A stretch of DNA of 36,174 nt from an uncultured Ardenticatenales bacterium (GTDB taxonomy: Bacteria; Chloroflexota; Anaerolineae; Ardenticatenales; JAADHH01), in assembly GCA_964517425.1 (NCBI GenBank), contig CAZFFM010000001.1:1-36174 (forward strand), written 5' to 3'. A program made the translations under genes and the position numbers. The notes beneath the pieces were generated by a model. That model saw only the letters and a list, made by a program, of their open reading frames with translations. It was not told where the DNA came from and made no database searches. The first letter of the stretch is position 1. Each line of letters begins with the position of its first letter. Shown here one piece after another: positions 7,841-36,174 of this stretch.

Positions 7841-7844
7841 TTTG

Positions 7845-9817: not shown

Positions 9818-9887
9818 GATACCTCCGGTTTGAATTAGACAGCTCCAAATGTGCGCCCTTGGGCCAAACGGTTTTGAAAACGGACAA

Positions 9888-10642: not shown

Positions 10643-10788
10643 TCTGCTGACCAGAACATCTGCCCAAACCCTCCAAAATACCTATCGCAACCTGGCGGAG
10701 TTTGCCGACCGGCCCAAATAGCCACAACAGCACACGATTCTTTCGCGATATCTCCTGGTTACAGAGTATCTCTCTGCTCCATTTCGTG

Positions 10789-17940: not shown

Positions 17941-18170
17941 TAGTTTACCAGCCACGGGCCTCTCGGGCCGAACCTAGCACATACTCGGAGAATCGAACTT
18001 GGTCTTTGCGAGAACAACGGCCATATCCCTCGGCAATGTTCGCACCAACTGAGCCAACGGCCCTGTAAAACCGGTCAGGCAAACTGAAGGTACGCCTGTC
18101 CCGAATCAGTTTGGACACGTCGCGCTAAGCGAGGTCTCCAGCAAAGATAACCAGAAAGCACTGTCTCCGT

Positions 18171-18254
18171 CACGCACCACGCACCACGCTCCACGCCCTA
18201 CGCCCCACGCCCTACGCCCCACGCCCTACGCCCCACGCCCTACGCCCCACGCCC
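18171..18254. repeat. Heptad array, 12 in-register units (CACGCCC/TACGCCC alternation)
   Basis: cacgcac x2, cacgctc, then (cacgccc tacgccc)x4.5. The array supplies the last 8 codons and the TAG stop of purB. Confidence 0.85.
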
Positions 18255-19626: not shown

Positions 19627-19780
19627 GATTTTGGAATTTAGATTTTGGATTTTGGATTTCCGTGATATGTTTGCGCGTTGAAACGTTCCAACGTTTCACG
19701 TCCTCATGCTCCCCGCTCACCGCTCTACGCCCTCCGCTCCACGCTCCACGCTCTCCGCTCCACGCTCGGCGCTCTACGCG
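19627..19780. repeat. Heptad array, 22 in-register units filling the purQ-purB spacer
   Basis: gattttg gaattta gattttg gattttg gatttcc ... cacgtcc tcatgct ccccgct caccgct ctacgcc ctccgct ccacgct x2 ... A further 5 units at 19812-19846 lie inside the purQ 3-prime end. Confidence 0.85.
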
Positions 19781-20535
19781 CAGCCTACCGCACTCCGAAA
19801 CAGCCGCAACCCCACGCCCTCCGCTCCCCGCTCCACGCCCTCCGCCGAATGTGTCCAGGCCGGGTGTTGGTAGGGGGAGACGAAGCGTTCGGGGTGGGGC
19901 ATTAGGCCGAGAACGTTGCCGGCGGCGTTGCAGATTCCGGCGACCGCGTCCAGCGAGCCGTTCGGGTTGGCCGGATAGTCCGCTGCCGGACGGCCGTCGG
20001 GGGCAGCGTAGGTGAAGGCAATCTGCCCCTGCTCACGCCAGCAGGGCAGGTCACCCGCATCGGCGGGCACGAACTTCCCCTCGCCGTGGGCCACCGGCAA
20101 GGTGATCACCTCCGGCAGGTCTGCCGTCCACAGCGAGCGGCTTCGGTCCACGCGCAGGTGTACCCAGCGGCACTCGAATCGCCCGGAGTCGTTGGCCGTC
20201 AGCGTGGCCGCGGGGAGCAGGCCGGCCTTCACCAGCACCTGGAACCCGTTGCAGACGCCGAGCACCGGCTTGCCCGATTCGACGAAGCGCCACAGCGGTT
20301 CGCGCAGACGGTACACCAGGTCCACGGCGAGCAACTTGCCCGCGCCGAGTGCGTCGCCGTAGGTGAAGCCGCCGGGGATGGTCAGGATTTGGTAATCGTC
20401 CAGCCGCCGCTCCTCTCGCAGCAACTGGTTGACATGCACCAGTTCCGGCTCCGCGCCGGCCAGCCGCCACGCCTCTGCCGTCTCCCGGTCGCAATTCGAG
20501 CCGGGGCCTTGCAACACCAACACACGAGGTTTCAT
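19774..20535 (-). CDS. purQ: Phosphoribosylformylglycinamidine synthase, glutaminase subunit
   Basis: GVCNGFQ catalytic Cys, plus HGEG and MPHPER. The start is ATG 20535 (MKPRVLVLQ) or 20541. Confidence 0.9.
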   Translation of the reverse strand: MKPRVLVLQGPGSNCDRETAEAWRLAGAEPELVHVNQLLREERRLDDYQILTIPGGFTYGDALGAGKLLAVDLVYRLREPLWRFVESGKPVLGVCNGFQVLVKAGLLPAATLTANDSGRFECRWVHLRVDRSRSLWTADLPEVITLPVAHGEGKFVPADAGDLPCWREQGQIAFTYAAPDGRPAADYPANPNGSLDAVAGICNAAGNVLGLMPHPERFVSPYQHPAWTHSAEGVERGAEGVGLRLFRSAVGCA

Positions 20536-21976: not shown

Positions 21977-24862
21977 CACCATCCCCTCCCCCCCCAGCAC
22001 CTCCCCCACCTGCGCCAACGGACAGCCGGCCAGCGCGGCCTCGAAGTTCGCGGCGTCCTCCGGGCGCACTTCCACCAGGAAGCGTCCGTTCGACTCGCTG
22101 AAGAGGATCGTGTCGGGGCGGGTCACGTCGGCGTCGCGCGGCACGCGGGCGAGGTCGAGCCGCAGGCCCAGCCGGCCGGCACGCGCCATCTCCGCGGCAG
22201 CCACGCCCAGTCCCCCGTCCGAGAGGTCGTGGCAGGCACGCACCAGCCCGTCGCGCATGGCGCGGTGCAGCGCGCGTACGGTCCGCGGCCCGCCCTCGGC
22301 CAACCCCGGCGCGCGTCGCCCAACAAATCCCTTTGCTTTGTAATACAGAGACCCGCCCATCTCATTGCGCGTCTGCCCGATGAGGTAGAGCCGATTTCCC
22401 GCTTCCTTTAGATCCATCGTCACCGCCCTACGCACATCCGGCACAATGCCCACTGCGGAGATGAGCAGTGTGCCCGGAATCGGGCGACGTTTGCCGGTCG
22501 CGTCCGCGTATTCGTTGTTCAGGCTGTCCTTGCCGGAGATGAAGGGCAAGCGGTAGGGCACGGCCCCGTCGTAGCACCCTTGCGCCGCGTGCAACAGCCC
22601 CCCCAGCCGGTCGGGGCGGCTCGGGTCGCCCCAGCAGAAATTGTCGAGGATCGCCACCCTCTCCGGGTCGGCACCGACAGCGACGACGTTGCGCAGCGCC
22701 TCGTCCACCGCCGAGACGGCCATCGCCCAGGGGTCAAGCGTGCCATAGCGCGGGTTGATGCCGCAACCGACGGCCACGCCACGCCAGCCGTTCGCCTCCA
22801 GCGGCTTGATCACCGCCCCGTCCGAGGGGCCGTCGCCGTGTGGCCCGACCAGCGGCTTGACCACCGTGCCCCCCTGTACCTCGTGGTCGTACCGGCGAAC
22901 GATGTCCGCCCGGCTGCGGACCGTGGGATGGGCCAGCAGCGCCTCCACCTCGCTGACCAGATCGTCCGGGCAGGGAAAATCGGGTTCGGGAAAATCGGGC
23001 GGTTCCCACGTGGCCTGCAAGTGACGGCGGGGACAGCCGCCGTGCAAGAACGTCACGCCCAACGCGCCGGCCGTCTTCCCATCGTAGCGCAGCGTCAATC
23101 GCCCGTCGCCGGTGAACTGGCCGATGACCGTGGCCTCCACATCCAGGTCGGCGCAGATCCGGATCACGCGTTCCACGTTCGCTGGCGGCACGGCCAGGAT
23201 CATCCGCTCCTGTGCTTCGGAGAGCCAGATTTCCCAGGGGGCCAGGCCCTGGTACTTGAGCGGCACACGTTCCAGGTGTACCGTTGCGCCGAGCTCGGCG
23301 GCCATTTCGCCGACGGATGAAGAGAGGCCGCCGCCGCCGCAATCGGTGATCGCGCTGTAGAGGCCGGCGTCACGTGCGACGAGGATCGCCTCCAGCATCT
23401 TCTTCTCGGTGATTGGGTCGCCAATCTGCACGGCGCTGCCGGCGATTTCGCCCGTCTCGTGGGTCAGCTCCAGCGAGGAGAAGGTCGCGCCGCGCAGCCC
23501 GTCCCGTCCGGTACGCCCACCGACCAGGACGATTTTGTCGCCGGCGCGCGGGTTCGTGCGGTGCAGGCCCTTCGGCGCAATGCCCAGGCAGCCGCAGTAG
23601 ACCAACGGGTTGCCGATGTAGCCTTCGTCATAGAGGATTGCGCCGTTGACCACCGGCACGCCCAGCTTGTTGCCGTAGTCTTCGATTCCGTGAACGACCC
23701 CGCTTTCGATCCGGCGGGGGTGCAGCACGCCGGCCGGCAAGTCGGCGAAGTCCAGGTCTTGCGGGCCGAAGCAGAGGACGTCGGTGGCGGCGAGGGGGCG
23801 CGCGGAGACCCCGATGATGTCGCGCACCACACCCCCCACGCCGGTGTTCGCGCCGCCGAAGGGTTCGATGGCCGAGGGGTGGTTGTGCGTCTCCACTTTG
23901 AAGGAAAGCTCCAGCTCGTCATCGAAATCGATCATGCCGGCGTTGTCCACGAAGGCGGAACGCACCCAGGGGCGGGCCGCTTGCGCAGTGGCCTGGCGGA
24001 TGTAGTCGAGCAGAGACCAGTCGCGCCCGTCGTCCAACGCGGGCGACCGGCGGGCGATCCGTCCGCGGAACGTCTTGTGCCCGCAGTGTTCGGACCAGGT
24101 CTGGGCCAGGGTTTCCAGTTCCAGGTCGGTGGGGTCGCGGCCCGCGTCGCGGAAGTAGGCCCGGATGGCCTGCATCTCGGCCAAGTCGAGCGAGAGGCGG
24201 CGTTCCGCGCTGATTTGTTCCAGGTCTGCATTCGACGCCTGGCGCAGGGGGACGATCTGCACATACCCCACCTGGCTGAGGTCCGGCGGTGCAAAGCCGG
24301 GTTGGGCCGCTCCTAACGTGTAGGTCTGGATGGCGTCGTTGCAGAGGAGGCGACGGGCAATGCGGTGGACCTGCGCTTCGCTCAGGTCGCCGGCCAGCTC
24401 GTAGCGCAGCCCTGTGCGCACCTGTCGCAGTCCCGTCACGCCGATGACCTGCGTGCCGTGGAGCAGCGCTTCCGCCTGTGCGTCGGTCACTCCGGGGCGG
24501 AGGGTGACTTCTACGGAATGCGTTTCGGTATTTCGATTTTGGATTTTGGATTTTGGATTTTGGATTGCTGTGTTGCCTATTGCGGGTTGTGGATCACGTT
24601 TCACGCTCCACGCTCCACGCTCGACGCTCCACGCTCCACGTGCCACGTGCCACGTCGTCTGCGTGACCGGATCGGCCAGCAGAGCGCGACAGATTGTTTC
24701 AACGTCGCCCTCTGTCAAACCACCGCGAAGGAAATAGAGATCGCAAACAACGACATTCTTTACCCCTGCGATTCCCAAATCGCGAATGGCGCGAGACACG
24801 GCATTTCCACGTGGATCGAACTGACCTTCCGAAAGGCACACATCGACGCGAAACGTTTTCAT
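21938..24862 (-). CDS. purL: Phosphoribosylformylglycinamidine synthase, PurS-PurS-PurL fusion
   Basis: One uninterrupted frame. It contains a PurS-like domain (MKTFRVDVCLSEGQFDPRGNAV...), a heptad-encoded linker, a second PurS-like domain (VEVTLRPGVTDAQAEA...), and then the PurL core (WSEHCGHKTF and two AIR-synthase-like repeats). The start is ATG 24862. Confidence 0.85.
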   Translation of the reverse strand: MKTFRVDVCLSEGQFDPRGNAVSRAIRDLGIAGVKNVVVCDLYFLRGGLTEGDVETICRALLADPVTQTTWHVARGAWSVERGAWSVKRDPQPAIGNTAIQNPKSKIQNRNTETHSVEVTLRPGVTDAQAEALLHGTQVIGVTGLRQVRTGLRYELAGDLSEAQVHRIARRLLCNDAIQTYTLGAAQPGFAPPDLSQVGYVQIVPLRQASNADLEQISAERRLSLDLAEMQAIRAYFRDAGRDPTDLELETLAQTWSEHCGHKTFRGRIARRSPALDDGRDWSLLDYIRQATAQAARPWVRSAFVDNAGMIDFDDELELSFKVETHNHPSAIEPFGGANTGVGGVVRDIIGVSARPLAATDVLCFGPQDLDFADLPAGVLHPRRIESGVVHGIEDYGNKLGVPVVNGAILYDEGYIGNPLVYCGCLGIAPKGLHRTNPRAGDKIVLVGGRTGRDGLRGATFSSLELTHETGEIAGSAVQIGDPITEKKMLEAILVARDAGLYSAITDCGGGGLSSSVGEMAAELGATVHLERVPLKYQGLAPWEIWLSEAQERMILAVPPANVERVIRICADLDVEATVIGQFTGDGRLTLRYDGKTAGALGVTFLHGGCPRRHLQATWEPPDFPEPDFPCPDDLVSEVEALLAHPTVRSRADIVRRYDHEVQGGTVVKPLVGPHGDGPSDGAVIKPLEANGWRGVAVGCGINPRYGTLDPWAMAVSAVDEALRNVVAVGADPERVAILDNFCWGDPSRPDRLGGLLHAAQGCYDGAVPYRLPFISGKDSLNNEYADATGKRRPIPGTLLISAVGIVPDVRRAVTMDLKEAGNRLYLIGQTRNEMGGSLYYKAKGFVGRRAPGLAEGGPRTVRALHRAMRDGLVRACHDLSDGGLGVAAAEMARAGRLGLRLDLARVPRDADVTRPDTILFSESNGRFLVEVRPEDAANFEAALAGCPLAQVGEVLGGEGMVSFEGEQELLKAL
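24535..24653. repeat. Composite heptad array, 17 in-register units (119 nt), inside the purSL ORF
   Basis: (gattttg)x4 gattgct gtgttgc ctattgc gggttgt ggatcac gtttcac (gctccac)x2 gctcgac (gctccac)x2 (gtgccac)x2. Confidence 0.85.
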
Positions 24863-25131
24863 GCGGCTGCCCCTGCAACGAAATTGGCACGTTGCAGATT
24901 GCTTTGCTTCACGCGTAACGACAAACCACAAAAGCGCAAAGGCACGAAGGAAAAAACTTTTTTGATACTTTGTAGCTTGGTGACTTTGTGGTGAGAAATC
25001 CCGTTTGGGTTCGGTTTGGGTAGGGGGAACATGACCGCGCGGGAAGACAACCGCTTCCTGGCAACAGTTGACAGATGGCGATGGTTCCAGAGGGACAGGT
25101 TTCCTCCGGAACCATAATTTGGCAAGATCAT
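24859..25131 (-). CDS. Possible 90-aa upstream ORF translationally coupled to purSL
   Basis: The ATG at 25131 has AGGAGG 7 nt upstream, and the stop forms an ATGA overlap with the purSL start. The product is basic, low-complexity and unrecognisable, and the ORF runs across repeat copy B. Confidence 0.25.
   Translation of the reverse strand: MILPNYGSGGNLSLWNHRHLSTVARKRLSSRAVMFPLPKPNPNGISHHKVTKLQSIKKVFSFVPLRFCGLSLRVKQSNLQRANFVAGAAA
24918..24999. repeat. MITE-like element, copy B (degenerate left arm)
   Basis: The core gcaaaggcacgaaggaaaaaac (24936-24957) and the right arm gactttgtggtgagaaat (24982-24999) match copy A at 1121-1202. Confidence 0.5.
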
Positions 25132-25382: not shown

Positions 25383-26453
25383 ATGAACGAACGTGAGTCT
25401 CAAATTCGCCGGCGACTGATGGATTGGTACGACCGGCGGCAGCGGGATATGCCTTGGCGTGGCGCAGGTGATCCGTACGCTGTCTGGGTCGCCGAGGTCA
25501 TGCTCCAGCAGACCCGTGTGGAGACGGTGCGGCCCTACTACCGTCGCTGGATGGAACGTTTCCCGACGGTGTTCGAGTTGGCCGCTGCTGCCACCGACGA
25601 CGTACTGAAGGCATGGGAAGGCCTGGGCTATTACGCACGCGCCCGCAATTTGCACAGGGCGGCGCAACAGCTTGTCCGCGACCACAGGGGAAAGCTTCCC
25701 GACAACTGGGATGACCTGCGAGCGCTGCCGGGGATCGGTGATTACACCGCCGGCGCGGTGCTCAGCATTGCCTTCGGCAAGCCGTTTCCGGCCGTAGATG
25801 GCAACGCGCGGCGTGTACTCGCCCGCCTCTTCGCCATAGACGCCCCCATTCGCCGCTCCGCCGTCCAGCGGCAGATGTACGACCTCGCCGCCCGCATGAT
25901 CCCCGCCGAGCGGCCCGGCGACTTCAACCAGGCGCTGATGGACCTGGGTGCAGAGGTCTGCCTGCCCCGTACGCCCGACTGCGATTCGTGCCCTCTGACC
26001 GGAGAATGTCTGGCTTTCCAGCAGGACCGGCAAGCCGATTTTCCCTACCGGAAGACACCTCACAAACTGCCCCACTACGAAATGACGGCCGGCGTTATTT
26101 GGGGGCCGCAACGCAAGGTGTTGATGGCACGCCGGCCCTGGAAAGGTTTGCTCGGTGGACTTTGGGGCTTCCCCGGCAGCAAACAGATCACGGGCGAAAC
26201 CCTGGAGGCCAGTTTGCGCCGGGGAATCCGTGCGACGCTTGGCGTGCGCGTTGCGATAGAAGAACCCATCGTGACCATCGAGCACGCGTACACCCACTTT
26301 CGCATTACACTGCACGCATTCCATTGCCGGTATCTGAGCGGAGACCCACAAACTATCGGTTGTGCAGAATGGAAATGGATAGTACCTGAAGAAATTCAGA
26401 AACTAGCGCTGCCACGCACGGACCAAAAAATCTTAAAGGCGATAGATAGGTGA
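25383..26453 (+). CDS. mutY: A/G-specific adenine DNA glycosylase
   Basis: HhH-GPD core (VWVAEVMLQQTRV, LPGIGDYTAGAV), an Fe-S cluster loop (CLPRTPDCDSCPLTGEC) and a C-terminal MutT-like domain. The start at 25383 is preferred over the ORF-track start at 25068. Confidence 0.9.
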   Translation: MNERESQIRRRLMDWYDRRQRDMPWRGAGDPYAVWVAEVMLQQTRVETVRPYYRRWMERFPTVFELAAAATDDVLKAWEGLGYYARARNLHRAAQQLVRDHRGKLPDNWDDLRALPGIGDYTAGAVLSIAFGKPFPAVDGNARRVLARLFAIDAPIRRSAVQRQMYDLAARMIPAERPGDFNQALMDLGAEVCLPRTPDCDSCPLTGECLAFQQDRQADFPYRKTPHKLPHYEMTAGVIWGPQRKVLMARRPWKGLLGGLWGFPGSKQITGETLEASLRRGIRATLGVRVAIEEPIVTIEHAYTHFRITLHAFHCRYLSGDPQTIGCAEWKWIVPEEIQKLALPRTDQKILKAIDR

Positions 26454-26486
26454 ATAATAGCGTACTGTTGCAGCACACTTCTACGT

Positions 26487-26515
26487 TTGCCTTTGAGGGG
26501 AGGATGTATTATAAT
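26487..26515 (+). promoter_or_regulatory. Promoter TTGCCT-17-TATAAT upstream of lepB
   Basis: The -35 is at 26487-26492 and the -10 at 26510-26515, about 150 nt upstream of the lepB start. Confidence 0.5.
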
Positions 26516-26663
26516 CTAAGGAGTCAATATGAGCGTATGCTCCGCTTTCCTGATGTTGGATTGTTGGGGTAATGCGAAACGTGACGTTTGAGGACTGCCA
26601 TCTAGCGACTGACGTCTGGCGTCTGAAGCAGATTGGACGCATGAGAATAAGGAGACAAGTATC

Positions 26664-27491
26664 TTGAGTTTGACTGACGAGGATCGTCGAATGGCGGCGA
26701 GCGAAACGGACGACAATCCGTTGATAACTACTTCGACAGAAGGGGCGTTCCCGGCTGTACCTGGCGATGGACAAGTTTTGAACGAAGAAGAAGCGACTTT
26801 TCAGGGGGTCGAAATCCCGGTTTCTGAGTGGGCCTGGACTCCCGCTATTCCGACAAACTCCGACACCTATACGCCTGTGCCCGTCTCTGTGGATTGGGGA
26901 ACAACGCCCTCTACCCCCCCAGACGCAACAGAACCAAAGCCATCGTTGTGGGATACGATACGCCCGCTGCTTCGCGAGACCGTAGAGACGCTCATCCTAA
27001 CCGCGATTATCTTTGTCCTGATCCGTTCCGTGGCCCAAAACTTTCGCATCGAAGGGTACAGCATGGAGCCGAATTTTCACGACGGCCAATATCTCATCGT
27101 GAACAAAATCAGCTACCATCTTCACGATCTGGAACGCGGAGACGTCATTGTTTTCCAGTATCCCCGCGCTCCAAAGCGAGATTTCATCAAGCGCGTCATC
27201 GGCCTGCCCGGAGAAAAGGTAGAAATTCGACGCGGTACGGTCTACGTCAACGACGAGCAGATGAAGGAGCCGTATGATCCCAACCCGGGGACGTATTCTT
27301 GGGGGCCACAGACCGTACCGGAGGGAGAGTACTTTGTTCTGGGAGACAACCGCAATAATTCCAGCGACTCGCACACGTGGGGCATGTTGCCGCGTGGCAA
27401 TGTGGTGGGTAAAGCCTGGGGCATCTATTGGCCGCCAAGTACCTGGGGCTTAGTCCAATACTTGCGCCCCAGCCTTGCGGCAGTGCAATAA
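26664..27491 (+). CDS. lepB: Signal peptidase I
   Basis: S26 motifs GYSMEPNF, GDVIVF, RDFIKRVIGLPGE and VLGDNRNNSSDS. The start is TTG 26664, with AGGAG 9 nt upstream. Confidence 0.9.
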   Translation: MSLTDEDRRMAASETDDNPLITTSTEGAFPAVPGDGQVLNEEEATFQGVEIPVSEWAWTPAIPTNSDTYTPVPVSVDWGTTPSTPPDATEPKPSLWDTIRPLLRETVETLILTAIIFVLIRSVAQNFRIEGYSMEPNFHDGQYLIVNKISYHLHDLERGDVIVFQYPRAPKRDFIKRVIGLPGEKVEIRRGTVYVNDEQMKEPYDPNPGTYSWGPQTVPEGEYFVLGDNRNNSSDSHTWGMLPRGNVVGKAWGIYWPPSTWGLVQYLRPSLAAVQ

Positions 27492-27503
27492 CGTGGACGT
27501 TCT

Positions 27504-27629
27504 GATTTTGGATTTTAGATTTGCGATTTTGGATTGGTGGGAAACGTGGTACGTATTGCGTGATGCGTGTTGCGTCTGACGCATCACGCATCACGTTTTA
27601 CCTGACACGTGACACTTGACACCTGACAC
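27504..27629. repeat. Composite heptad array, 18 in-register units (126 nt)
   Basis: gattttg gatttta gatttgc gattttg gattggt gggaaac gtggtac gtattgc gtgatgc gtgttgc gtctgac gcatcac x2 gttttac ctgacac gtgacac ttgacac ctgacac. Confidence 0.9.
27559..27600 (+). terminator. Intrinsic terminator of lepB, built from inverted heptads
   Basis: An 18-bp stem pairs cgtgatgcgtgttgcgtc with gacgcatcacgcatcacg, with one mismatch. It is followed by TTTT and lies 68 nt after the lepB stop. Confidence 0.6.
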
Positions 27630-27656
27630 CTTATTTCCATAACAGCAGCGGGAGCC

Positions 27657-28394
27657 GTGATGGACGAAGCAAGTATCCGTGCCCTTGTCCGGCGTGTACT
27701 GGATGAAATGGGAGACTCAAAGCCCACCGGGCCAATGAATGATGGCAGAGGGGAACCGCTTGTTTCTGCTCCCCTCGCGCTGGTCACCCAAGCGGACGTG
27801 GAAGCGTTGCCGCCGGGCGGGCAACTGCTCATCGCCGCGAAGGCCATCATCACGCCGCTGGCCCGAGACGTGGCCAAAGAGCGGCGCGTGACTCTCGTTC
27901 GTACGGCGGCGCCGGCGCAACCGGAAGACCGCGCGCCGGAGCGGCCCGCCCGCGTCGCCATCGGCGCGGACCACGGCGGGTATGCGCTGAAGGAAATCTT
28001 GCGCCGTTACTTGCAAGACCAAGGCTACGACGTGCGCGATTGCGGCACGCACGGCACGCAGTCGGTGGACTACCCTGACATCGCTTTTCAGGTCGCTCGC
28101 CTGGTCGCCGAAGGGGCGGTGGACCGGGGCATCATGATCGATGGCGCGGGAATCGGCTCCTGCATGGCAGCGAACAAAGTGCCCGGCGTGCGGGCCAGCC
28201 TCTGCTACGACGTTTCCAGCGCGCGGAACGCCCGCGAACACAACGACGCCAACGTCCTCACCCTGGGGGGCAAGCTGATCGGCGAAGCATTGGCCAAGCA
28301 AATCATCAAGACCTGGCTGGAGATGCCCTTCGCCGGCGGTCGCCATGCCGGTCGCGTGGAAAAGATCATGGCTGTGGAGAAACAATGGCAGTAG
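27657..28394 (+). CDS. rpiB: RpiB/LacAB-family sugar-phosphate isomerase with an approximately 100-aa N-terminal extension (BMC-targeted)
   Basis: RpiB core ([14 protein letters not shown] ... [10 protein letters not shown] ... HNDANVL). The N-terminal amphipathic helix [15 protein letters not shown] resembles a BMC encapsulation peptide. Confidence 0.85.
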
Positions 28395-29257
28395 ACATCG
28401 AGCAACTGGTCGCCCTGATCACCAAAGAGGTCATGGTCAAGCTGCGCACGCAGGAGGCGGAAGAGCGCGGCGACCTGCCGGTCTTCCGCTGCTACGACTG
28501 CAGCCAGGGGCGGTGTGCCTGGACCTGCACCGACAAGGTGCGCCGGGTGATGGATGCCGGCGCGACACGCATCGCTGCATCGCTCGGTGCCGGCGGCGTG
28601 GCCACCGACATTGCCCGCATCATTGATCACACGCTGCTCAAGGCGGACGCCACGCCAGCGCAGATCGCCCAGCTTTGCTACGAGGCACAGAAGTACGGGT
28701 TCGCGTCCGTCTGCATCAACCCCGGCTACGCTGCGCTGGCCGCGCAGTTGCTGGCCGGTTCGCCGGTGAAGGTCTGCACCGTTGTGGGGTTTCCGCTGGG
28801 TGCCACCAGCACGGAGGCCAAAGTGGCCGAGACGGTGCAGGCGCTGGACGACGGGGCCACGGAGATTGACATGGTGATCAACATCGGTGCGCTGAAGGCG
28901 GGCGACTACGAGCTGGTGGAGCGAGACATCGCCGCCATCGTGCGTGCGGCACACGGGCGGGGCGCACTCGTCAAGGTGATCATCGAGGCAGCGCTGTTGA
29001 CCGACGAAGAGAAGGTGAAGGCGTGTACGCTGGCCAAAGCGGCGGGGGCCGACTACGTGAAAACCTCGACCGGTTTTGGGCCGGGCGGCGCGACGACACA
29101 CGACGTGGCCCTCATGCGCCAGACGGTGGGCGCGGGTATGGGTGTCAAGGCGGCCGGCGGGATCGGCACCCTAGAGAAGGCGCGCGAGATGGTCCATGCC
29201 GGCGCCACACGCATCGGGGCCAGCGCCGGTGTGCGCATCGTGGCACAGGGGACGTAG
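28385..29257 (+). CDS. deoC: Deoxyribose-phosphate aldolase with N-terminal encapsulation-peptide-like helix
   Basis: DERA core ([36 protein letters not shown] Schiff-base Lys region, VKAAGGI). The N-terminus is [17 protein letters not shown]. Confidence 0.9.
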
Positions 29258-29299
29258 GGCGGGAAGCATGGATCGCCAAGATGAGAACAGGAGTGTCCA

Positions 29300-29578
29300 G
29301 TGCGTGCAGTCCCTCCGTATCTCTTGACGGATCATGCACGAATGGAGATGGCTCGCCGCCAGATCAAAGAGTCAGATATTGCTAGAATCTTGGCCTTACC
29401 TGAGCAAACTGAAAGGGTACGTGAGGGGCGCATGGTCTACCAATCTCGGATAAAGTGTGGAAATCCTCCTAAACTACACCTGCTCAGGGTATTTGTGGAT
29501 GTCGACAGGGATCCCCCGGAGGTCGTAACGGCATACCGGACCAGCAAGGTTAAAAAGTACTGGAGAACTGAACAGTGA
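29300..29578 (+). CDS. DUF4258-like toxin
   Basis: 92 aa with the motif LTDHARMEMARRQIKESDI. The GTG start has AGGAG 6 nt upstream, and there is a GTGA overlap with the next gene. Confidence 0.65.
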   Translation: MRAVPPYLLTDHARMEMARRQIKESDIARILALPEQTERVREGRMVYQSRIKCGNPPKLHLLRVFVDVDRDPPEVVTAYRTSKVKKYWRTEQ

Positions 29579-29781
29579 GAGTCATTTACGACCCCGCGAC
29601 AGATACGTTGACGGTCATCCTGGCTGAAACGCAAGTCGCTGAAAGCGACGAGGATAAACCCGGCGTGATCCTAGACTACGATGCGGGAGGAAGTCTTGTA
29701 TCTCTCGAGATTCTTGACGCCTCTCACCGTGTGGCAGTACCAACCGGCATAGAGTATCAGGTCATGCAAAGAGTCGCATAG
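29575..29781 (+). CDS. DUF2283-like antitoxin
   Basis: 68 aa. YDPATDTLTVIL ... GVILDYDAGGSLVSLEILDAS is the typical DUF2283 pattern. Confidence 0.65.
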   Translation: MRVIYDPATDTLTVILAETQVAESDEDKPGVILDYDAGGSLVSLEILDASHRVAVPTGIEYQVMQRVA

Positions 29782-29805
29782 GGAATGTAGTCGCACACGC
29801 ACGCG

Positions 29806-29874
29806 ATGGTACACGCCGGTGCCACGCGCATCGGGGCCAGCGCCGGTGTGCGCATCGTGGCGCAGGGGGCGTAG
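29806..29874 (+). pseudogene. Duplicated deoC 3-prime end, copy 2
   Basis: Encodes [22 protein letters not shown]-stop. It shows 63 of 69 nt identity to 29189-29257, and 5 of the 6 differences are synonymous. Confidence 0.85.
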
Positions 29875-29892
29875 CGCGAAGGGAGAAGGTGG

Positions 29893-30123
29893 ATGACCAG
29901 TACAGCGATCACACAACAACTTAACGAACAAATTGTACAACTTCCGCTTGGGCTTCAACAAAGGGTTCTTGATTTTGCACAAGCGCTGGTGATTTCTTCT
30001 CCCAAAGGAATCCCGGGAAAGCAACTGCTTCGCTTTGCAGGCACCATGGACCATGATGATATTCGGGCAATCGAACAAGCCATCGAAGCCGGGTGCGAGA
30101 AAGTAGACGTGAATGAATGGTAG
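29893..30123 (+). CDS. Antitoxin partner of VapC (family not recognised)
   Basis: 76 aa, with GGAGAAGG RBS and an 11-nt overlap with the PIN gene. Confidence 0.6.
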   Translation: MTSTAITQQLNEQIVQLPLGLQQRVLDFAQALVISSPKGIPGKQLLRFAGTMDHDDIRAIEQAIEAGCEKVDVNEW

Positions 30124-30502
30124 ATTCCTCTTGGATACAAATGTAATCATTGCGCTTTTTGCGGGAGAGGCCGGCCTTCGGAACCAATTGGAGCAGGCAA
30201 AGGAAGTCTTTGTGCCCACGATTGCACTAGGAGAACTCTACTTCGGAGCTGGAAAGTCCGGACGAGCAAAAGAGAATCTGGGACGGCTGGATGAATTTGC
30301 AGTTAGCGCTTCTGTCCTTGCCTGTGACTTGGGCACGGCGAGAGAGTACGGCGTCATTAAGAACTCATTACGAGAGAAGGGCAGGCCCATCCCCGAGAAT
30401 GACATTTGGATCGCGGCCATTGCCAGGCAGTACGGGTTGACTCTGGTCACCCGAGATGCGCATTTTGACGGAATCAGTGAACTGGCAATGGAGGCCTGGT
30501 AG
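30113..30502 (+). CDS. vapC: PIN-domain toxin, VapC family
   Basis: 129 aa with FLLDTNVIIAL, ENDIWIAA and LVTRDAHF. Confidence 0.85.
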   Translation: MNGRFLLDTNVIIALFAGEAGLRNQLEQAKEVFVPTIALGELYFGAGKSGRAKENLGRLDEFAVSASVLACDLGTAREYGVIKNSLREKGRPIPENDIWIAAIARQYGLTLVTRDAHFDGISELAMEAW

Positions 30503-30543
30503 TCCACGCCGGTTCCACGCGCATCGGGGCGCAGGGGGCGTAG
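30502..30543 (+). pseudogene. Duplicated deoC 3-prime end, copy 3 (with in-frame 24-nt deletion)
   Basis: Encodes VHAGSTRIGAQGA-stop and starts at the last base of the vapC stop codon. Confidence 0.8.
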
Positions 30544-30548
30544 GGCGA

Positions 30549-30604
30549 ATGTCAATTGTCAACGATCAACTTTCAATGGCTAACGTAACACGTAACACGC
30601 AACA
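30549..30604. repeat. Heptad array, 8 units, inverted relative to 11944-12062
   Basis: atgtcaa ttgtcaa cgatcaa ctttcaa tggctaa cgtaaca cgtaaca cgcaaca. The array runs directly into the eutN RBS (GAGGAG). Confidence 0.8.
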
Positions 30605-30615
30605 CGAGGAGCCCC

Positions 30616-30906
30616 ATGCTCATTTGTCGTGTCGTAGGATCGGCGGTTTCGACCGTCAAAGATGAAAAGTTGAAAGGGCTGAAGCTGCTCATTGTCCGTG
30701 AGGTGACGGTGCGCAACCGGCTGGTGGGCAAGCCGCTGGTCGCCGTCGACTCGGTCGGCGCGGGCGAGGGGGAGCTGGTCTTCGTCGCCCAGGGCAGTTC
30801 CGCCCGTCAGACCCACCTGACGCAGAGCGCGCCGGTAGACGCCACGATCATGGCCATCGCCGACTCGTTGGAGGTGGGAGGGAAAGTGACGTATCGTAAG
30901 GCGTAG
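30616..30906 (+). CDS. eutN: BMC vertex (pentamer) protein, EutN/CcmL/PduN family
   Basis: 96 aa with the BMC-P signature MLICRVVGSAVSTVKDEKLKGLKLLIV ... [13 protein letters not shown]. Confidence 0.9.
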   Translation: MLICRVVGSAVSTVKDEKLKGLKLLIVREVTVRNRLVGKPLVAVDSVGAGEGELVFVAQGSSARQTHLTQSAPVDATIMAIADSLEVGGKVTYRKA

Positions 30907-30917
30907 AGGACTGTGAT

Positions 30918-31787
30918 ATGAGTTTCAAAAAGTACACCTCAGGCCAACATACGATCTACCATGGCGATGCTTTGAACGTCCTGCCAACCTTGCAGGACGA
31001 AAGCGTTGACCTGATTTTTGCTGATCCACCATACAACATAGGAAAGCAATTTGCGAGCTTTACTGATAGGTGGTCATCAAATGAAGCTTATGTTGAATGG
31101 TGTAGAAAATGGATCGACCTTTGTGTTCAGAAATTGAACACGACTGGGACAATGTACATAATGGCAAGCACGCAAGGTATGCCCTATATTGACATGCACC
31201 TTCGTGACAAAGTCACAATTCTTTCGCGAATAGTTTGGCACTACGACAGTTCTGGTGTTCAGGCAAGAAGATGTTTTGGTTCCCTGTACGAGCCTATTCT
31301 GCATTGTGTGAAAGACCCTAAAGAGTACACTTTTAATGCCGACCAGATTTTAGTTGAAGCCAGAACAGGCGCAAAAAGGGAACTCGTTGACTATCGAAAA
31401 GTCCCCCCAGTGCTTTATAATACCAAGAAGGTACCTGGTAACGTTTGGTACTTCCCCCGCGTACGCTACCGAATGCCGGAGTATGAGAAGCACCCTTCAC
31501 AGAAACCTGAAGCATTGCTTGAGCGAATCATCGCTGCCAGCAGCAATCCAGGCGATCTAGTCCTGGATCCGTTTGCAGGAACGTTTACAACTTGTGCCGT
31601 CGCAAAGCGTATGGGAAGAACATCAATTGGAATAGAAATCCAGGAGGAATTCATCAAAATCGGTTTGCGAAGGGTTGGCGTGGCCACAACTTACAATGGG
31701 GAAAAACTTAAACCCCCTCAGAAGAACTTCATCCACCGCGCAAAGAAGTCCACACCCCATTCGGTACAACTAGAGCTTGGGGTCTAA
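30918..31787 (+). CDS. Beta-class N6-adenine or N4-cytosine DNA methyltransferase
   Basis: Motif IV FADPPYN precedes motif I LDPFAGTFTT (the beta-class order). The gene is AT-rich and starts 11 nt after the eutN stop. Confidence 0.85.
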   Translation: MSFKKYTSGQHTIYHGDALNVLPTLQDESVDLIFADPPYNIGKQFASFTDRWSSNEAYVEWCRKWIDLCVQKLNTTGTMYIMASTQGMPYIDMHLRDKVTILSRIVWHYDSSGVQARRCFGSLYEPILHCVKDPKEYTFNADQILVEARTGAKRELVDYRKVPPVLYNTKKVPGNVWYFPRVRYRMPEYEKHPSQKPEALLERIIAASSNPGDLVLDPFAGTFTTCAVAKRMGRTSIGIEIQEEFIKIGLRRVGVATTYNGEKLKPPQKNFIHRAKKSTPHSVQLELGV

Positions 31788-32907
31788 GTTTGTGAAAGAG
31801 CATAGCTTTACGCCTGTAATCAGGCAGATACTGTCCGAGGAATTCGGCCCTGCGTATGAAGAAATCTTCAAACAGAGTGAATTGTTGCAGTATCTCAATG
31901 TAAAGACGATCTCAGCCTCTCGTGGGTCAAAGGCCCGTGGTTCATTCGGAAACATCTATGCAATCTACGTGCTGGTCGAGGATTATGTGAGGCGTGGTTT
32001 TCACATTCGTGGGGATTATGAAGATGCCGAGGGAGCACAGTTTTCCGCTCTCTTCAAACGTCAGAGGGGTTTGCCCTTTGGGAGCAGACTCCAAAACCAT
32101 GCTCTCAACCATCGTCTTAATCAGGAATTCAGAAAGTGCTTTCCAATAGCCAATATTCAACCAATACTGCGCGATGCCGAGACTCGCCAGTATTGGATAA
32201 ACGAACACTTGTTAGCGGTCGAGGTACATGAACGAGAGTACAACCTTGCAGAGGCTGTAATCAGAATAATCGATGCTTACGCCGACGCTAAGCAAGAAGC
32301 TTTCAATTCGTTCATTCGCGATTGCGTGAAAATGCAGCACATATCGGACGAAAGCCCTGAAGCAGTGGTAGACTTCATCGCCAATCTGCTGAGGCCCAAA
32401 GTTGATGCACGGATTTTTGAGATTGTGAGCTTCGCAATTTTGAAGGCACATTACGGAGACAAGTCGTTCTTTTGGGGATGGGATATAGACAGCATAGAAG
32501 AAGAAAAGCTCGCTCTATACAAAACGGGGCGTACCAACGCGAACGATGGAGGAATTGACTTTGTGATGCGCCCCCTAGGACGATTCTTCCAAGTGACTGA
32601 AACGCTTGATGTGAGGAAGTATTTCTTGGATATTGACAAAGTACAGAAGTATCCAATCACATTTGTAGTGAAAACAGAAATGGGGATGCCTGAGATAAAG
32701 CAAACCATTGAGAAGCAGGCCGAAGAGCAGTACCCTGTACGTGCTATCGTCAGGCGGTATATGGAATGTATAGAGGAAACCATAAATATACCGACATTGC
32801 TAGAACGGCTGCAAGAAGTTGTGGAGGCAGGAGACCTAAATACAGTCATAAAAGAAATCGTAACGCATAGCAAGGTAGAGTTCAATATGATTGACCAAAA
32901 GACGTAA
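31777..32907 (+). CDS. Putative type II restriction endonuclease
   Basis: 376 aa, AT-rich, and overlapping the methyltransferase gene (TTG 31777, or GTG 31792). The DGGIDFVMRP...QVTETLDVRK segment resembles Mrr-cat/PD-(D/E)xK. The call rests mainly on context. Confidence 0.6.
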   Translation: MGSKFVKEHSFTPVIRQILSEEFGPAYEEIFKQSELLQYLNVKTISASRGSKARGSFGNIYAIYVLVEDYVRRGFHIRGDYEDAEGAQFSALFKRQRGLPFGSRLQNHALNHRLNQEFRKCFPIANIQPILRDAETRQYWINEHLLAVEVHEREYNLAEAVIRIIDAYADAKQEAFNSFIRDCVKMQHISDESPEAVVDFIANLLRPKVDARIFEIVSFAILKAHYGDKSFFWGWDIDSIEEEKLALYKTGRTNANDGGIDFVMRPLGRFFQVTETLDVRKYFLDIDKVQKYPITFVVKTEMGMPEIKQTIEKQAEEQYPVRAIVRRYMECIEETINIPTLLERLQEVVEAGDLNTVIKEIVTHSKVEFNMIDQKT

Positions 32908-33228
32908 CACGCAGGCGGAGGAGGAACTCGTGCCTGTTCAGATGGTAATTGAATTGAGAGAAAAACAGGGAATCCAACCAATTCTTCAATCTATCGAATC
33001 GTACAAAGTGCAACTCACGGCCAGTATCGAGCGCGGCAAACGTCACCTTCGTCAATTTGAGCAACAATACGGCGTGGGTACAAGCTCACTTCTTGCAAGC
33101 GATGACGGCCGAAGACCTGGAAGGTGGTGACCTGGAATACGTAGAATGGGCGGGGGAAGCCAAACTGCTGGAAGCACTGAAAGCTGGGTTGTTGGAACTA
33201 GAGTATGCCAAGTATCACCTTCCCTGAA
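32891..33228 (+). pseudogene. Frameshifted small antitoxin-like gene
   Basis: Frame 1 gives ...RHLRQFEQQYGVGTS and then nonsense. Another frame continues [47 protein letters not shown]-stop. The shift lies near 33077-33085. Confidence 0.5.
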
Positions 33229-33263
33229 TACGCTCAACGGATTGAGCACATTTTGAATCATGT

Positions 33264-33417
33264 GGTCGGCGCGGGCGAGGGGGAGCTGGTCGCCGTCGCT
33301 CAAGGTAGTTCCGCCCGCCAGACCCACCTGACGCAGAGTGCGCCGGTAGACGCCACGATCATGGCCATTGCCGACTCGCTGAAGGTGGGAGGGACCGTGA
33401 CGTATCGTAAGGCGTAA
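33264..33417 (+). pseudogene. Duplicated eutN 3-prime end (51 codons)
   Basis: 141 of 154 nt are identical to 30753-30906 with no indels. It encodes [50 protein letters not shown]-stop. The ORF-track entry 33205..33417 is a chimeric read-in. Confidence 0.85.
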
Positions 33418-33420
33418 TGC

Positions 33421-33765
33421 TTGGGGGAGATGATCGTGATTACTCTTGAGAGGGCAAAAGAAATGATCTCTTCGATGACCCGTGCCGAAAAGGCTCAGGT
33501 TCTACAGTGGGTAGCCCGCGACTTTGGGGAAGCGTTTCCAGGCATCGAGAGCTCACCGCAAGTATCTGGCGGCGAGGCTCACATCGTGCGCACCCGCATT
33601 CCGGTTTGGGTGTTGGTGCAAGCCATGAAGTTGGGAGCAAGCGAAGCAGACTTGCTTAGAATGTACCCAACATTACGTGCAGAGGACTTGGTCAACGCAT
33701 GGGCCTATTATCGCTCGCATCGGGACGAGATTGAGCGACAAATCGTTGAGAATGAAGCGGCGTGA
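33421..33765 (+). CDS. DUF433 antitoxin-like protein
   Basis: The motif is AHIVRTRIPVWVLVQAMKLGASEADLLRMYPTLRAEDLVNAWAYY. The start is ambiguous (TTG 33421, ATG 33430 or GTG 33436). Confidence 0.75.
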   Translation: MGEMIVITLERAKEMISSMTRAEKAQVLQWVARDFGEAFPGIESSPQVSGGEAHIVRTRIPVWVLVQAMKLGASEADLLRMYPTLRAEDLVNAWAYYRSHRDEIERQIVENEAA

Positions 33766-33768
33766 GAC

Positions 33769-34137
33769 ATGGCCCGACTGTTTGCAGACGAGAATTCCCC
33801 CTTGCCTGTTGTCGAAGAACTGCGCCGGCTCGGACACGATGTGCTCACAGTACAGGAAGTCGGCATGGCCAATCAAATGGTTCCAGATAAATCGGTATTA
33901 GACTTTGGGACTGCTGACAATCGAATCGTGTTAACACTCAACCGCAAGCACTTCGTCCACTTGCACAGAAGGTCGTCGGAGCATGAAGGTATTATCGTGT
34001 GCACAGTCGATCTCGACTTCGCCGGTCAGGCCTTGCGCATTCATGAAGCTGTTGGATCGCAGGAGTCGTTGCCTGGAGAACTGATCCGGGTGAACCGGCC
34101 TCGTCAAGGTGGCGAAGTAATTCCGAAGAGGTCGTGA
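33769..34137 (+). CDS. DUF5615 (PIN-like, Mut7-C-related) toxin-like protein
   Basis: The N-terminus RLFADENSPLPVVEELRRLGHDV is typical of DUF5615 partners of DUF433. Confidence 0.7.
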   Translation: MARLFADENSPLPVVEELRRLGHDVLTVQEVGMANQMVPDKSVLDFGTADNRIVLTLNRKHFVHLHRRSSEHEGIIVCTVDLDFAGQALRIHEAVGSQESLPGELIRVNRPRQGGEVIPKRS

Positions 34138-34139
34138 TT

Positions 34140-35627
34140 ATGTCCGCAACGTATGACAAGGACTTGCAGTCCATCCAGGAAGCGCGGCAGCTGGCCGTGG
34201 CTTGCCGCAACGCGCAACGCGAATTCGCCCACTTCTCGCAGGAAGAGGTGGACCGCGTGGTGGCCGCCATGGCCGACGCCGGCTACCGCGCCGCCGAGCG
34301 GCTGGGAGTCATGGCCCACGACGAGACCGGCTACGGCGTGCCCAGCCATAAGAAGCTGAAGAACGAATTCGCCAGCCGCACGGTGTGGGAATCGATCCGC
34401 GACGTGAAGACCGCCGGCGTGATCCGCCGCGACGACGCGCGCGGCATCGTCGAGATCGGCTGGCCGGTGGGCGTCATCGTCGGCCTGACGCCGAGCACGA
34501 ACCCGACATCCACGATCCTGTACAAATCGCTGATCGCCCTCAAAGCGCGCAACGGCATCGTCTTTGCGCCGCACCCTTCGGCCGTGAAGTGCTCGCTGGA
34601 GACGACACGCATCATGGCCGAAGCCGCCCAACACGCCGGCGCACCGGCCGGGCTGCTCGCCTGCATGTCGAAAATCTCCCTGCCCGGTACGCACGAGCTG
34701 ATGGGCCACTGGGCAGTGAACCTGATCCTGGCCACCGGCGGCGCGGCGATGGTGAAGGCCGCGCACAGCGCCGGCAAGCCGGCCTATGGCGTGGGACCGG
34801 GCAACGTCCCGGTCTACGTGGACCGCAGCGCGGATGTGCCCCAGGCCGCCTTCGACATCGTCAACAGCAAATCGTTCGATTGCAGCGTCATCTGCTCGTC
34901 GGAGCAGGCGGTGGTGGCCGACCGCCCCATCGCCGCCCAACTGCGGCGGGAAATGGAGCGCAACGGCGCATACTTCGTGGACCAGGCCCGCGCCGACGCC
35001 CTGGGCCGGCGACTCTTCCGGCCGGACGGCACGAACTGGCCCGAAGTCGTCGGCAAGACACCGCAGCAGTTGGCCGAGATGAGCGGCATTCAGGTGCCGG
35101 GCGACGCGCGCGCCCTGGTCGCCGACCTGAACGCGGTCGGGCCGGAACACCCGCTGTCACGCGAGAAGCTGACCACCGTCCTCGGCTTCTACGAAGAGGA
35201 GGGCTGGATCAAGGGGTGCGAGCGATGCATCGAGCTGCTCAAGTTCGGCGGCGACGGGCACACGCTGGCCATCCACGCGCAGGACGAAGAGGTGATCATG
35301 GCCTTTGGGTTGGAGAAGCCGGCCTTCCGCATCGTGGTCAACACGGCAGCCACCGCCGGCGCCATCGGCCTGACCACCGACCTTGATCCGGCCATGACCC
35401 TGGCCACGGGAGGCATGGGCGGCGGCATCAGCAGCGACAACATAACGGTACGCCACCTGCTGAACACCAAGCGGCTGGCCTACGGCCGGCGTCCCTGGCC
35501 GCTGAAAGCCGAAGCAAAGCGGAGACCGCAAGCGACGAGACCGGCACCAACGGCAACCGGCGGCTATTCCGAGGCCGAGGTCGAGGCCATCGTCCGCCGC
35601 GTGGTGCGGGAGTTAAGAGGGGGATAG
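34140..35627 (+). CDS. Acylating (CoA-dependent) aldehyde dehydrogenase, EutE/PduP-like, with C-terminal encapsulation-peptide-like helix
   Basis: The catalytic region SFDCSVICSSEQAVV can be compared with FDNGxICASEQ. The C-terminus has a Pro/Ala-rich linker and then SEAEVEAIVRRVVRELRGG-stop. The start is ATG 34140 (or GTG 34134). Confidence 0.85.
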   Translation: MSATYDKDLQSIQEARQLAVACRNAQREFAHFSQEEVDRVVAAMADAGYRAAERLGVMAHDETGYGVPSHKKLKNEFASRTVWESIRDVKTAGVIRRDDARGIVEIGWPVGVIVGLTPSTNPTSTILYKSLIALKARNGIVFAPHPSAVKCSLETTRIMAEAAQHAGAPAGLLACMSKISLPGTHELMGHWAVNLILATGGAAMVKAAHSAGKPAYGVGPGNVPVYVDRSADVPQAAFDIVNSKSFDCSVICSSEQAVVADRPIAAQLRREMERNGAYFVDQARADALGRRLFRPDGTNWPEVVGKTPQQLAEMSGIQVPGDARALVADLNAVGPEHPLSREKLTTVLGFYEEEGWIKGCERCIELLKFGGDGHTLAIHAQDEEVIMAFGLEKPAFRIVVNTAATAGAIGLTTDLDPAMTLATGGMGGGISSDNITVRHLLNTKRLAYGRRPWPLKAEAKRRPQATRPAPTATGGYSEAEVEAIVRRVVRELRGG

Positions 35628-35912
35628 TTGGCAGGCAATACTATTGTGATCGTGTGGACCGAGTACTTGAGATACAGGGCCAAACTGCGCAAATTCGACC
35701 TTGCCAAAGTGGAGGAAGTTGTGCGGCACTCAACTGAACGGTATCTCGACACGGCAACAGGCCGTTTCGTCGTCGTGGATCGACATGAAAACATGCTGGT
35801 GATGATCCCGTATGAGACAGATGTAGATTCCATGATACCGATAACTATCCATGCAACGACAAGGCAGCAGATTAGATTCCGGCTTAAAACAGGGAGGCTC
35901 ACCTATGTATGA
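35628..35912 (+). CDS. Putative toxin partner of a DUF2283 protein (family uncertain)
   Basis: 94 aa. The TTG start comes directly after the aldehyde dehydrogenase stop, with GAGGGGG upstream. There is an 8-nt overlap with the next gene. Confidence 0.5.
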   Translation: MAGNTIVIVWTEYLRYRAKLRKFDLAKVEEVVRHSTERYLDTATGRFVVVDRHENMLVMIPYETDVDSMIPITIHATTRQQIRFRLKTGRLTYV

Positions 35913-36132
35913 CAAAAACAAAACCCATTTGGTATACTTTGAAAAAGAGGACGTGTTACACCTGGCAATCTCTGACGAGCCTGAGGCCAAGAGCGTTGAA
36001 CTCAGTCCGAACGTGACGGCGGAACTGAACAAGAAAGGGGAATTGATCGGCGTTGAGATCCTCAATGCCAGTACTTTCATGCGGGATTCCATTCTCGATT
36101 CGGTACAAGCAAAGATGTTACAACTGGCTTGA
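35905..36132 (+). CDS. DUF2283-like antitoxin
   Basis: The start at ATG 35905 has GGGAGG upstream. The pattern is EKEDVLHLAISDEPEAKSVELSPNVTAELNKKGELIGVEILNAS. Confidence 0.6.
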   Translation: MYDKNKTHLVYFEKEDVLHLAISDEPEAKSVELSPNVTAELNKKGELIGVEILNASTFMRDSILDSVQAKMLQLA

Positions 36133-36174
36133 AAGTAGTAGCTTCACGACGAATAATACGAAAGGAGCTTCATA

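Follow-up and report, generated by a model that had tools for sequence, protein, structure and literature searches.

A Type II restriction-modification pair and a eutN-end repeat at the variable eutN-ALDH junction of a Chloroflexota microcompartment operon

For restriction-modification (R-M) systems, an "insertion with long target duplication" has been described (Nobusato et al. 2000; Furuta, Abe & Kobayashi 2010, PMC2853133), and the screening for such events has used R and M genes between long direct repeats, with an insert of <20 kb and a repeat of >30 bp (PMC2853133). In our study, a Chloroflexota contig of 36,174 nt (the window), whose closest relatives carry Ardenticatenales or Anaerolineales labels, has been analysed because of a Type II R-M pair which lies inside a microcompartment operon, between two 154-nt copies of the 3' end of eutN. 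The window is similar to a long target duplication in that R and M, with no transposase or integrase, are found between 154-bp repeats of a host gene end, and in that the guanine-plus-cytosine (GC) content of the insert is below that of the host. The distance of 2.36 kb between the copies and the repeat length of 154 bp are also within the sizes used in the screening. On the other hand, the repeats bracket more than the R-M pair, one edge is inside a toxin gene and the copies are 8% diverged; moreover, a sister lineage has the R-M without repeats, and repeats of this kind occur with a cassette that is not R-M. The key test of a long target duplication failed, since no insert-free relative has the repeat once with both flanks collinear. 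TumA-TumE or a remnant of it comes after eutN in the insert-free relatives L005, L175 and L183; in the window, it lies inside the apparent insert, the right flank of which, DUF433-DUF5615, is absent from all relatives. The best fit is homology-anchored illegitimate recombination in a cassette hotspot, which is mechanistically a variant of known processes.

One of these processes is homology-facilitated illegitimate recombination, which has reportedly been described in de Vries & Wackernagel 2002 and Prudhomme et al. 2002 and is said to have been defined by experiments in which naturally transformable bacteria were given unrelated foreign DNA. The window resembles it by a junction at a 4-nt GGTC without extended identity, and by the gain of foreign DNA with the loss of the resident TumE body; in the related contig L171, the other end is a homologous tract which fades to background inside the aldehyde dehydrogenase gene. 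The difference is that here the partners are alleles of one operon, so that the product duplicates a gene end. Integron arrays are similar in another respect, as promoterless co-oriented cassettes of toxin-antitoxin (TA) or R-M genes are stacked past a fixed point and their order and content vary in close relatives. In the window, however, the 3' end of the upstream gene, copied over a variable length (38-154 nt), forms the cassette boundaries, which points to homology-based rather than site-specific recombination. An integron reading was rejected, as no attC-like repeats are present at the cassette ends: no inverted repeat brackets the cassettes in 26000-36174 (no search aimed at an IntI integrase was made).

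The eutN-end repeat and its junction with TumE

The microcompartment operon lies on the plus strand, with the gene order rpiB - deoC - eutN - acylating aldehyde dehydrogenase (ALDH) - shell proteins. The intact eutN (30616..30906, plus strand) codes for a 96-residue BMC-P vertex protein of the EutN/CcmL type (Pfam PF03319, E 2e-29), which has 93-99% identity to the 8 other EutN proteins of cluster P0121. The next core gene, ALDH (34140..35627, plus strand; PF00171), shows 92-93% nucleotide identity with L005, L006 and L171. Repeat copy 1 (30753..30906, plus strand) was delimited by repeat search and pairwise alignment as the 3' end of eutN, codons 47-96 with the TAG stop. Copy 2 (33264..33417, plus strand) is an orphan eutN 3' fragment joined in frame to a TumE head and is matched by PF03319 on residues 19-57. 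The repeat search reported a direct repeat with 92% identity over 153 nt (30753-30905 against 33264-33416), and the similarity of the two copies is far beyond chance. The homology opens at GGTCGGC (30753/33264) and closes at the stop codon, which is TAG at 30904-30906 and TAA at 33415-33417. A preliminary description of this DNA had given the two segments as colinear with 13 mismatches in 154 nt, and pairwise alignment has reproduced this count together with the classes of codon change, i.e. seven synonymous differences, all at third or first codon positions, three amino-acid differences (TTC to GCC, F to A; GAG to AAG, E to K; AAA to ACC, K to T) and the change of stop from TAG to TAA.

The sequence between the copies can be read against L005, where eutN is followed after 15 nt by an intact 98-aa gene (TumA), a TumE gene (PF20126; E 9e-18 for the repaired L005 protein) and ALDH, with no R-M, no eutN fragment and no DUF433/DUF5615 at this junction. 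In the window, a TumA-like antitoxin pseudogene (32930..33227, plus strand) with 94.5% nucleotide identity to the intact gene (L005:9341-9637) starts with GTG at 32930, and a +1 insertion of A near 33082 splits it into two open reading frames (ORFs). Only a frameshifted small gene had been reported here earlier; the frameshift stands, and the comparison with L005 has now given the gene its identity. The TumE toxin gene is reduced to its first 19 codons (33205..33263, plus strand, matched to the start of the L005 gene), the remainder being deleted. By a three-way comparison of the window, L005 TumE and eutN copy 1, the illegitimate junction between TumE and eutN' has been placed at a GGTC microhomology (33264..33267, plus strand). 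The left edge of copy 2 is thus TumE codon 19 joined to eutN codon 47 at these 4 nt, and a homeologous patch (GGTC..GGCGAGG..GCTGGTC) is present around the switch in both parents. Across the junction runs a chimeric in-frame ORF of 70 aa (33205-33417), consisting of the first 19 residues of TumE and the last 51 of EutN and retaining the start that overlaps TumA.

Directly downstream of copy 2, a DUF433 antitoxin-like gene (33421..33765, plus strand; PF04255, E 1e-17) is followed by a DUF5615 PIN-like toxin gene (33769..34137, plus strand; PF18480, E 1e-21). The latter is ~10 codons longer than its homologues of 111-113 aa, which cover 91% of the query. In the final ~30 nt ahead of the ALDH start, a similarity to the TumE tails of L005, L165 and L175 is seen. 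As the TumE head lies on the left and this tail-like sequence on the right, the block of eutN' end, DUF433 and DUF5615 occupies the former site of the TumE body.

Cassette turnover at the eutN-ALDH junction and the origin of the repeat

The relatives were retrieved by an ALDH protein scan and by exact-protein look-ups of the EutN 90% cluster, and their nucleotide identity is 80-94%. In the L165-170 lineage, eutN is followed by 14 nt of spacer, 36 nt from the start of the methyltransferase gene, endonuclease pieces of 136 nt and 63 nt, a short TumE tail and ALDH, and no eutN copy is present. Against the window, the R-M pieces show 89-90% identity, as do the flanking core genes; because of this equal identity and the same position, they are what is left, after decay, of the same R-M in this place, which has been destroyed by two internal deletions removing M and R together. 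A 77-aa fusion ORF is found in this remnant (L165:1939-2236, also L166, L167, L169 and L170), in which the 13 first codons of the methyltransferase are joined to an internal piece of the endonuclease and to the C-terminus of the latter. In L171/L173, the order is eutN, an MNT nucleotidyltransferase gene, a 92-nt eutN-end copy and ALDH, with no R-M. Hence, the R-M and the gene-end duplication are uncoupled both ways. It had been proposed that the R-M was acquired with the gene-end copy; this could not be upheld, as the left end of copy 2 is the junction inside TumE and not an R-M boundary, the two lineages just described each have one element without the other, and L005 has TumA-TumE with neither of them.

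The 92-nt copy of L171 and its downstream spacer are identical to the allele of L175, a different lineage, at 207 of 209 nt, and this copy differs from the L171 copy 1 at 7 of 90 positions. The tract common to L171 and L175 is 97-100% identical over about 300-400 nt and then passes to a background of ~88% inside ALDH, the near-identity reaching about 100-200 nt into that gene. This tract pattern indicates that copy 2 of L171 came from another functional allele, with one illegitimate and one homologous end. L175 itself is near-empty, with a 113-nt spacer of TumA/TumE remnants, and L183 is near-empty with a 100-nt spacer of heptamer repeats. These repeats form the whole empty eutN-ALDH spacer of L183 and adjoin a truncated DUF2283 gene. 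L184 holds a different cassette, beginning 4 nt past the eutN stop. As to the empty site, for which a search was suggested in the preliminary description, L005 is free of R-M and L175 and L183 are near-empty; an empty eutN-DUF433 target was found in no relative. The cassettes after eutN in L171 (at 4260), L184 (at 5296) and L175 (at 6047) all start with ATG(A/G)TTGACA, 4 nt past the eutN stop, and their N-termini are MIDKETV, MIDIEKQ and MVDIAMA, respectively, which suggests that successive cassette replacements may keep a short common leader and the first codons.

The eutN-ALDH junction is a hypervariable hotspot, where each related lineage has a small selfish cassette of its own. In bacteria whose EutN is at least 93% identical, this 100-nt junction is found in at least 7 occupancy states (empty; TumAE; TumAE remnant; MNT; R-M remnant; another cassette; R-M with TumA and DUF433/DUF5615), in which a copy of the upstream gene end stands between stacked cassettes. 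It provides a sequence-resolved example of the accumulation of defence and addiction modules in housekeeping operons without dedicated mobility genes, and of the order of cassette decay, in which toxins and R-M are lost first. This population picture of the junction is a more useful result than the R-M itself, the context of which is moderately interesting; to our knowledge, such a context has not been described for microcompartment operons. It also advises caution, as direct repeats around an R-M need not be its own insertion footprint.

We consider it rather likely that the 154-nt repeat is the scar left when two diverged haplotypes of this operon, with different cassettes, recombined. Haplotype A would have had the order eutN-(R-M)-TumA-TumE-ALDH and haplotype B, as yet unsampled, the order eutN'-DUF433-DUF5615-(TumE tail)-ALDH; we infer both the existence of haplotype B and the direction of transfer. 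A single illegitimate junction would have joined TumE codon 19 to eutN' codon 47, at GGTC within the homeologous patch, and the second join may have been made by homologous crossover in common flanking sequence, with ALDH as a possible site, unmapped in the window. Such an event would fit homology-facilitated illegitimate recombination of imported DNA, and a Campbell-type integration, i.e. a single crossover of a circle carrying the gene-end segment, would fit equally. The consequences would be the deletion of the toxin gene, the retention of the antitoxin gene (later frameshifted) and the stacking of two cassette sets around the gene-end copy. The divergence of the copies agrees with two haplotypes: they differ by about 7 synonymous and 5 non-synonymous nucleotides, and the ratio of non-synonymous to synonymous divergence (pN/pS), about 0.26, is similar to the 0.08-0.2 between functional orthologues. 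This ratio, near the orthologue range, fits a divergence which arose mostly while both copies were in working genes. The deoC-end copies of the same operon would also be explained by this process. A bolder version, in which the gene-end copies are portable homology arms and a cassette with its gene end loops out through recombination of direct repeats and re-enters any related genome by single crossover within that gene end, is conceivable, though doubtful. If it were true, the system would be an integrase-free analogue of the integron, in which addiction modules colonise and shuffle at the junctions of a conserved, transcribed operon, and toxin or R-M addiction would bias the surviving recombinants, with the antitoxin kept and the toxin deleted.

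A number of observations weigh against recombination between two haplotypes. The sequence most similar to copy 2 is copy 1 of the window itself (141/153), and of the 13 differences 10 are derived on the copy-2 branch; these include the three amino-acid changes, at positions which are invariant in the nine related EutN proteins. As the derived changes are concentrated on copy 2, duplication and decay in place would give this pattern as well, and some decay of copy 2 in place has certainly happened. The synonymous excess on the copy-2 branch is marginal (p about 0.04-0.1 by a binomial estimate). Both a linear and a circular intermediate would fit, and so would either direction of transfer. Moreover, none of the collections searched contained haplotype B, with an intact eutN' and then DUF433-DUF5615. 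When DUF5615 and the methyltransferase were looked up as exact proteins, the contigs returned were all identical to the window, and a metagenome scan with EutN gave nothing closer than 67%. The copy-2 changes F56A, E86K and K90T are absent from all 9 related EutN proteins, none of the 9 members of the EutN 90% cluster having copy-2 substitutions. The nearest DUF5615 homologue, 77% identical, is at an unrelated locus, and a comparison of the window ALDH or eutN with the relatives for a mosaic signal gave no clear breakpoint. Finally, a circle of eutN end, R-M, TumA and TumE head entering a DUF433/DUF5615 chromosome would give the same map. Such a circle would in this sense vindicate the acquisition of the R-M with the gene-end copy; the L165 remnant, on the other hand, shows the R-M at this site without duplication in a sister lineage.

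A rival explanation is an R-M-driven insertion with long target duplication, in which R-M, TumA and the TumE head would have entered a eutN-DUF433-DUF5615 chromosome and duplicated 154 bp; a circle with eutN end and R-M would yield the same final map by single crossover. The low GC of the insert and its agreement with the PMC2853133 screen in arrangement, insert size and repeat length are also in its favour. We hold it to be unlikely, as the repeat boundary is inside TumE and not at the R-M edge, L165-170 have the same R-M at the same site with no duplication, L171/L173 have a duplication of the same kind without R-M and the empty eutN-DUF433 target is in no relative; further, a target duplication starts identical, whereas these copies are 8% diverged with synonymous bias. 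A local tandem duplication from eutN codon 47 to TumE codon 19, with later replacement of the second cargo by DUF433-DUF5615 and decay of the gene end, would produce the same reading of TumE head against eutN codon 47, and would agree with copy 2 being nearest to the window's copy 1 and bearing the majority of the derived changes, some of them non-synonymous and at conserved positions. This explanation appears quite unlikely to us: it needs an extra replacement step, because the DUF433 gene after copy 2 is unrelated to the R-M or TumA after copy 1; the L171 copy 2 came from the allele of another lineage with its own downstream flank; and half of the changes on the copy-2 branch are synonymous transitions.

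The window being a contig of a metagenome-assembled genome with extreme strain variation at the junction, an assembly chimera of two coexisting strains (one with R-M/TumAE, the other with DUF433/DUF5615) through the common eutN end has also been considered. However, exact matches at the junction do not exceed 7 nt, and the 4-7 nt of exact identity with either parent at the TumE/eutN' join is too short for a k-mer assembler; a joining through the common eutN end would also not keep both copies in one contig. The repeat structure is 100% identical in L001 (JGI 3300023444) and L002 (Logan SRR9849951), which were assembled independently from other samples and span the whole structure. Because of the short identity and these two spanning contigs, a chimera is hardly credible.

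The restriction-modification pair

As far as can be judged from sequence, the two ORFs form a genuine Type II R-M system, as had been proposed, and the pair is predicted to be active and is probably functional. The first gene (30918..31787, plus strand) has profile matches of a Type II beta-class N6/N4 DNA methyltransferase of 289 aa, which is YhdJ/M.EcoKII-like and would methylate adenine at N6 (m6A). It matches Pfam PF01555 (E 3e-58), the NCBIfam equivalog NF008572 of the YhdJ type (465.3 bits over residues 3-279, above the cutoff of 292) and PADLOC MTase_II PDLC03299 (E 2.5e-131). The DPPY motif at aa 36-39 precedes the FxGxG-type motif DPFAGTFTT near aa 215, and this order places the enzyme in the beta class. 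Its relatives in PDB include CcrM, M.RsrI and M.MboIIA. The profiles, the motif order and the coordinates also bear out the earlier statement that a beta-class methyltransferase starts 11 nt after the eutN stop, at ATG 30918. The likeness to the YhdJ/M.EcoKII type lies in the score above the NF008572 cutoff and the beta-class motif order, whereas the E. coli YhdJ is orphan and silent and the window enzyme is paired with a Type II endonuclease. YhdJ of E. coli methylates ATGCAT and protects against NsiI (PMC4444293). In the 36-kb window, ATGCAT is seen 2 times against 3-5 expected, in a window which is too small for this count and where many GC-rich palindromes are depleted anyway.

The second gene (31792..32907, plus strand, from GTG 31792) codes for a predicted Type II restriction endonuclease of the REBASE type, of 371 aa, which matches PADLOC REase_II PDLC03455 end to end (E 3.7e-161, residues 2-368). 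It has >6,400 homologues with 57-82% identity across phyla, several of them labelled "restriction endonuclease" by NCBI; the R-M is an ordinary new member of a large known family. In both unrelated contexts examined, an endonuclease homologue directly follows a PF01555 methyltransferase, and the two genes are neighbours in L177, L178 and L180. The preliminary description had given an overlapping putative endonuclease at 31777-32907. The identity as endonuclease has been retained, but the overlap has not: the start is most likely GTG 31792, 4 nt past the methyltransferase stop, with no overlap of the two genes, because P0001, the database protein, is 371 aa long and a gap of 4 nt also separates the two genes of the L177 pair. 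TTG 31777, which would give an ORF of 376 aa, is probably not the start; an exact look-up of the 376-aa ORF was without match.

A reservation concerns the nuclease fold, to which the endonuclease gave no significant structural match. There was no hit in Pfam, NCBIfam, a phmmer search of PDB or a PDB profile search. Foldseek with full-length and domain models (AlphaFold2, with predicted local distance difference test scores of 85.5 and 86.1) gave only non-significant matches, to Cap4 (E 0.1), MspJI (E 0.17), Ecl18kI (E about 1) and PspGI. The model shows an alpha-beta-beta-beta-alpha-beta core with invariant E210, D252/D256, Q267 and E270, and this predicted topology, together with the invariant residues, is compatible with PD-(D/E)XK.

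Both genes are under strong purifying selection, with pN of about 0.12-0.20 against saturated pS (for the methyltransferase and its L177 homologue, pN 0.12). The order of M then R with the 4-nt gap is kept in other, unrelated genomes, and the GC of the pair is below that of its neighbours in each of 3 hosts. In the window, the R-M has 45.7% GC, eutN 62.9% and ALDH 67.7%; the block between the repeat copies has 42-49% against 63-70% for core genes. The AT-rich block noticed earlier is hence foreign by composition. Relative to L005, the R-M cassette is a clean indel of ~2.02 kb (30907..32929, plus strand) replacing about 13 nt of L005 between the eutN stop and the tumA start, as blastn aligns 30520-30910 with 8932-9328 and 32931-33291 with 9342-9701. 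The pair is co-oriented with the operon, and a promoter and terminator scan of the gap between eutN and the methyltransferase found nothing promoter- or terminator-like, a result of low weight as the scan counts equal those of shuffled sequence. From the shared strand, the 11-nt gap and the lack of such an element in between, cotranscription of the R-M with the operon is plausible. In L180 (2008-7380), groES-groEL is directly followed, on the same strand, by a 69%-identical homologue of the R-M pair and then by DUF2442 and PIN cassettes; because of this arrangement, the docking of an R-M behind a housekeeping operon beside TA modules is not unique to the window.

deoC-end copies and other repeats of the window

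The repeat search has also found three copies of the deoC 3' end on the plus strand, namely copy 1 at 29181..29261, copy 2 at 29798-29878 after a DUF4258/DUF2283 cassette, and copy 3 at 30502-30549 after a VapBC cassette, the last having lost 24 nt internally, between short repeats. In L005, copies 1 and 2 are present, copy 2 being orthologous, and VapBC and copy 3 are lacking. In L165, VapBC directly follows the intact deoC, and then come the same VapC/deoC'' junction and a DUF2283 remnant; the junction is that of the window, but the neighbours differ on each side. From this distribution, units of cassette and gene end come and go as modules. The eutN and deoC copies had been ascribed to the same donor lineage or the same mechanism. 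The former is not supported, since deoC copy 2 is shared orthologously with L005 and the eutN copy is not, so that the two duplications are events of different age; the latter is plausible.

Low-GC TA cassettes are found between high-GC core genes across the whole contig. Further examples are ParE/Phd at 7529-8132 (minus strand), PIN with an upstream partner at 17164-17858 (minus strand) and a DUF2283 pair right after ALDH at 35628-36132 (plus strand). A direct repeat of 45 nt with 80% identity (9787-9831 and 10716-10760) brackets a low-GC ORF on the minus strand (9983-10642). Its reverse complement holds GGAGG and then GTG, as if the beginning of the downstream minus-strand gene, with its leader, had been duplicated, which would mirror the gene-end copies.

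The leaders of core genes are filled with tandem heptamer repeats of the CACGCTC, AACACGY and ACGTGAA types (18156-18272, 19690-19799, 24580-24668, 27544-27625 and 30575-30610 of the window; also L183:5292-5391), which may be regulatory or may act as a recombination/deletion hotspot. Lastly, an 84-nt repeat with 71% identity occurs at two distant intergenic sites (1128-1211 and 24925-25008) and shows internal dyad symmetry (ACCACAAAG...CTTTGTGGT), and could belong to the small repetitive extragenic elements.

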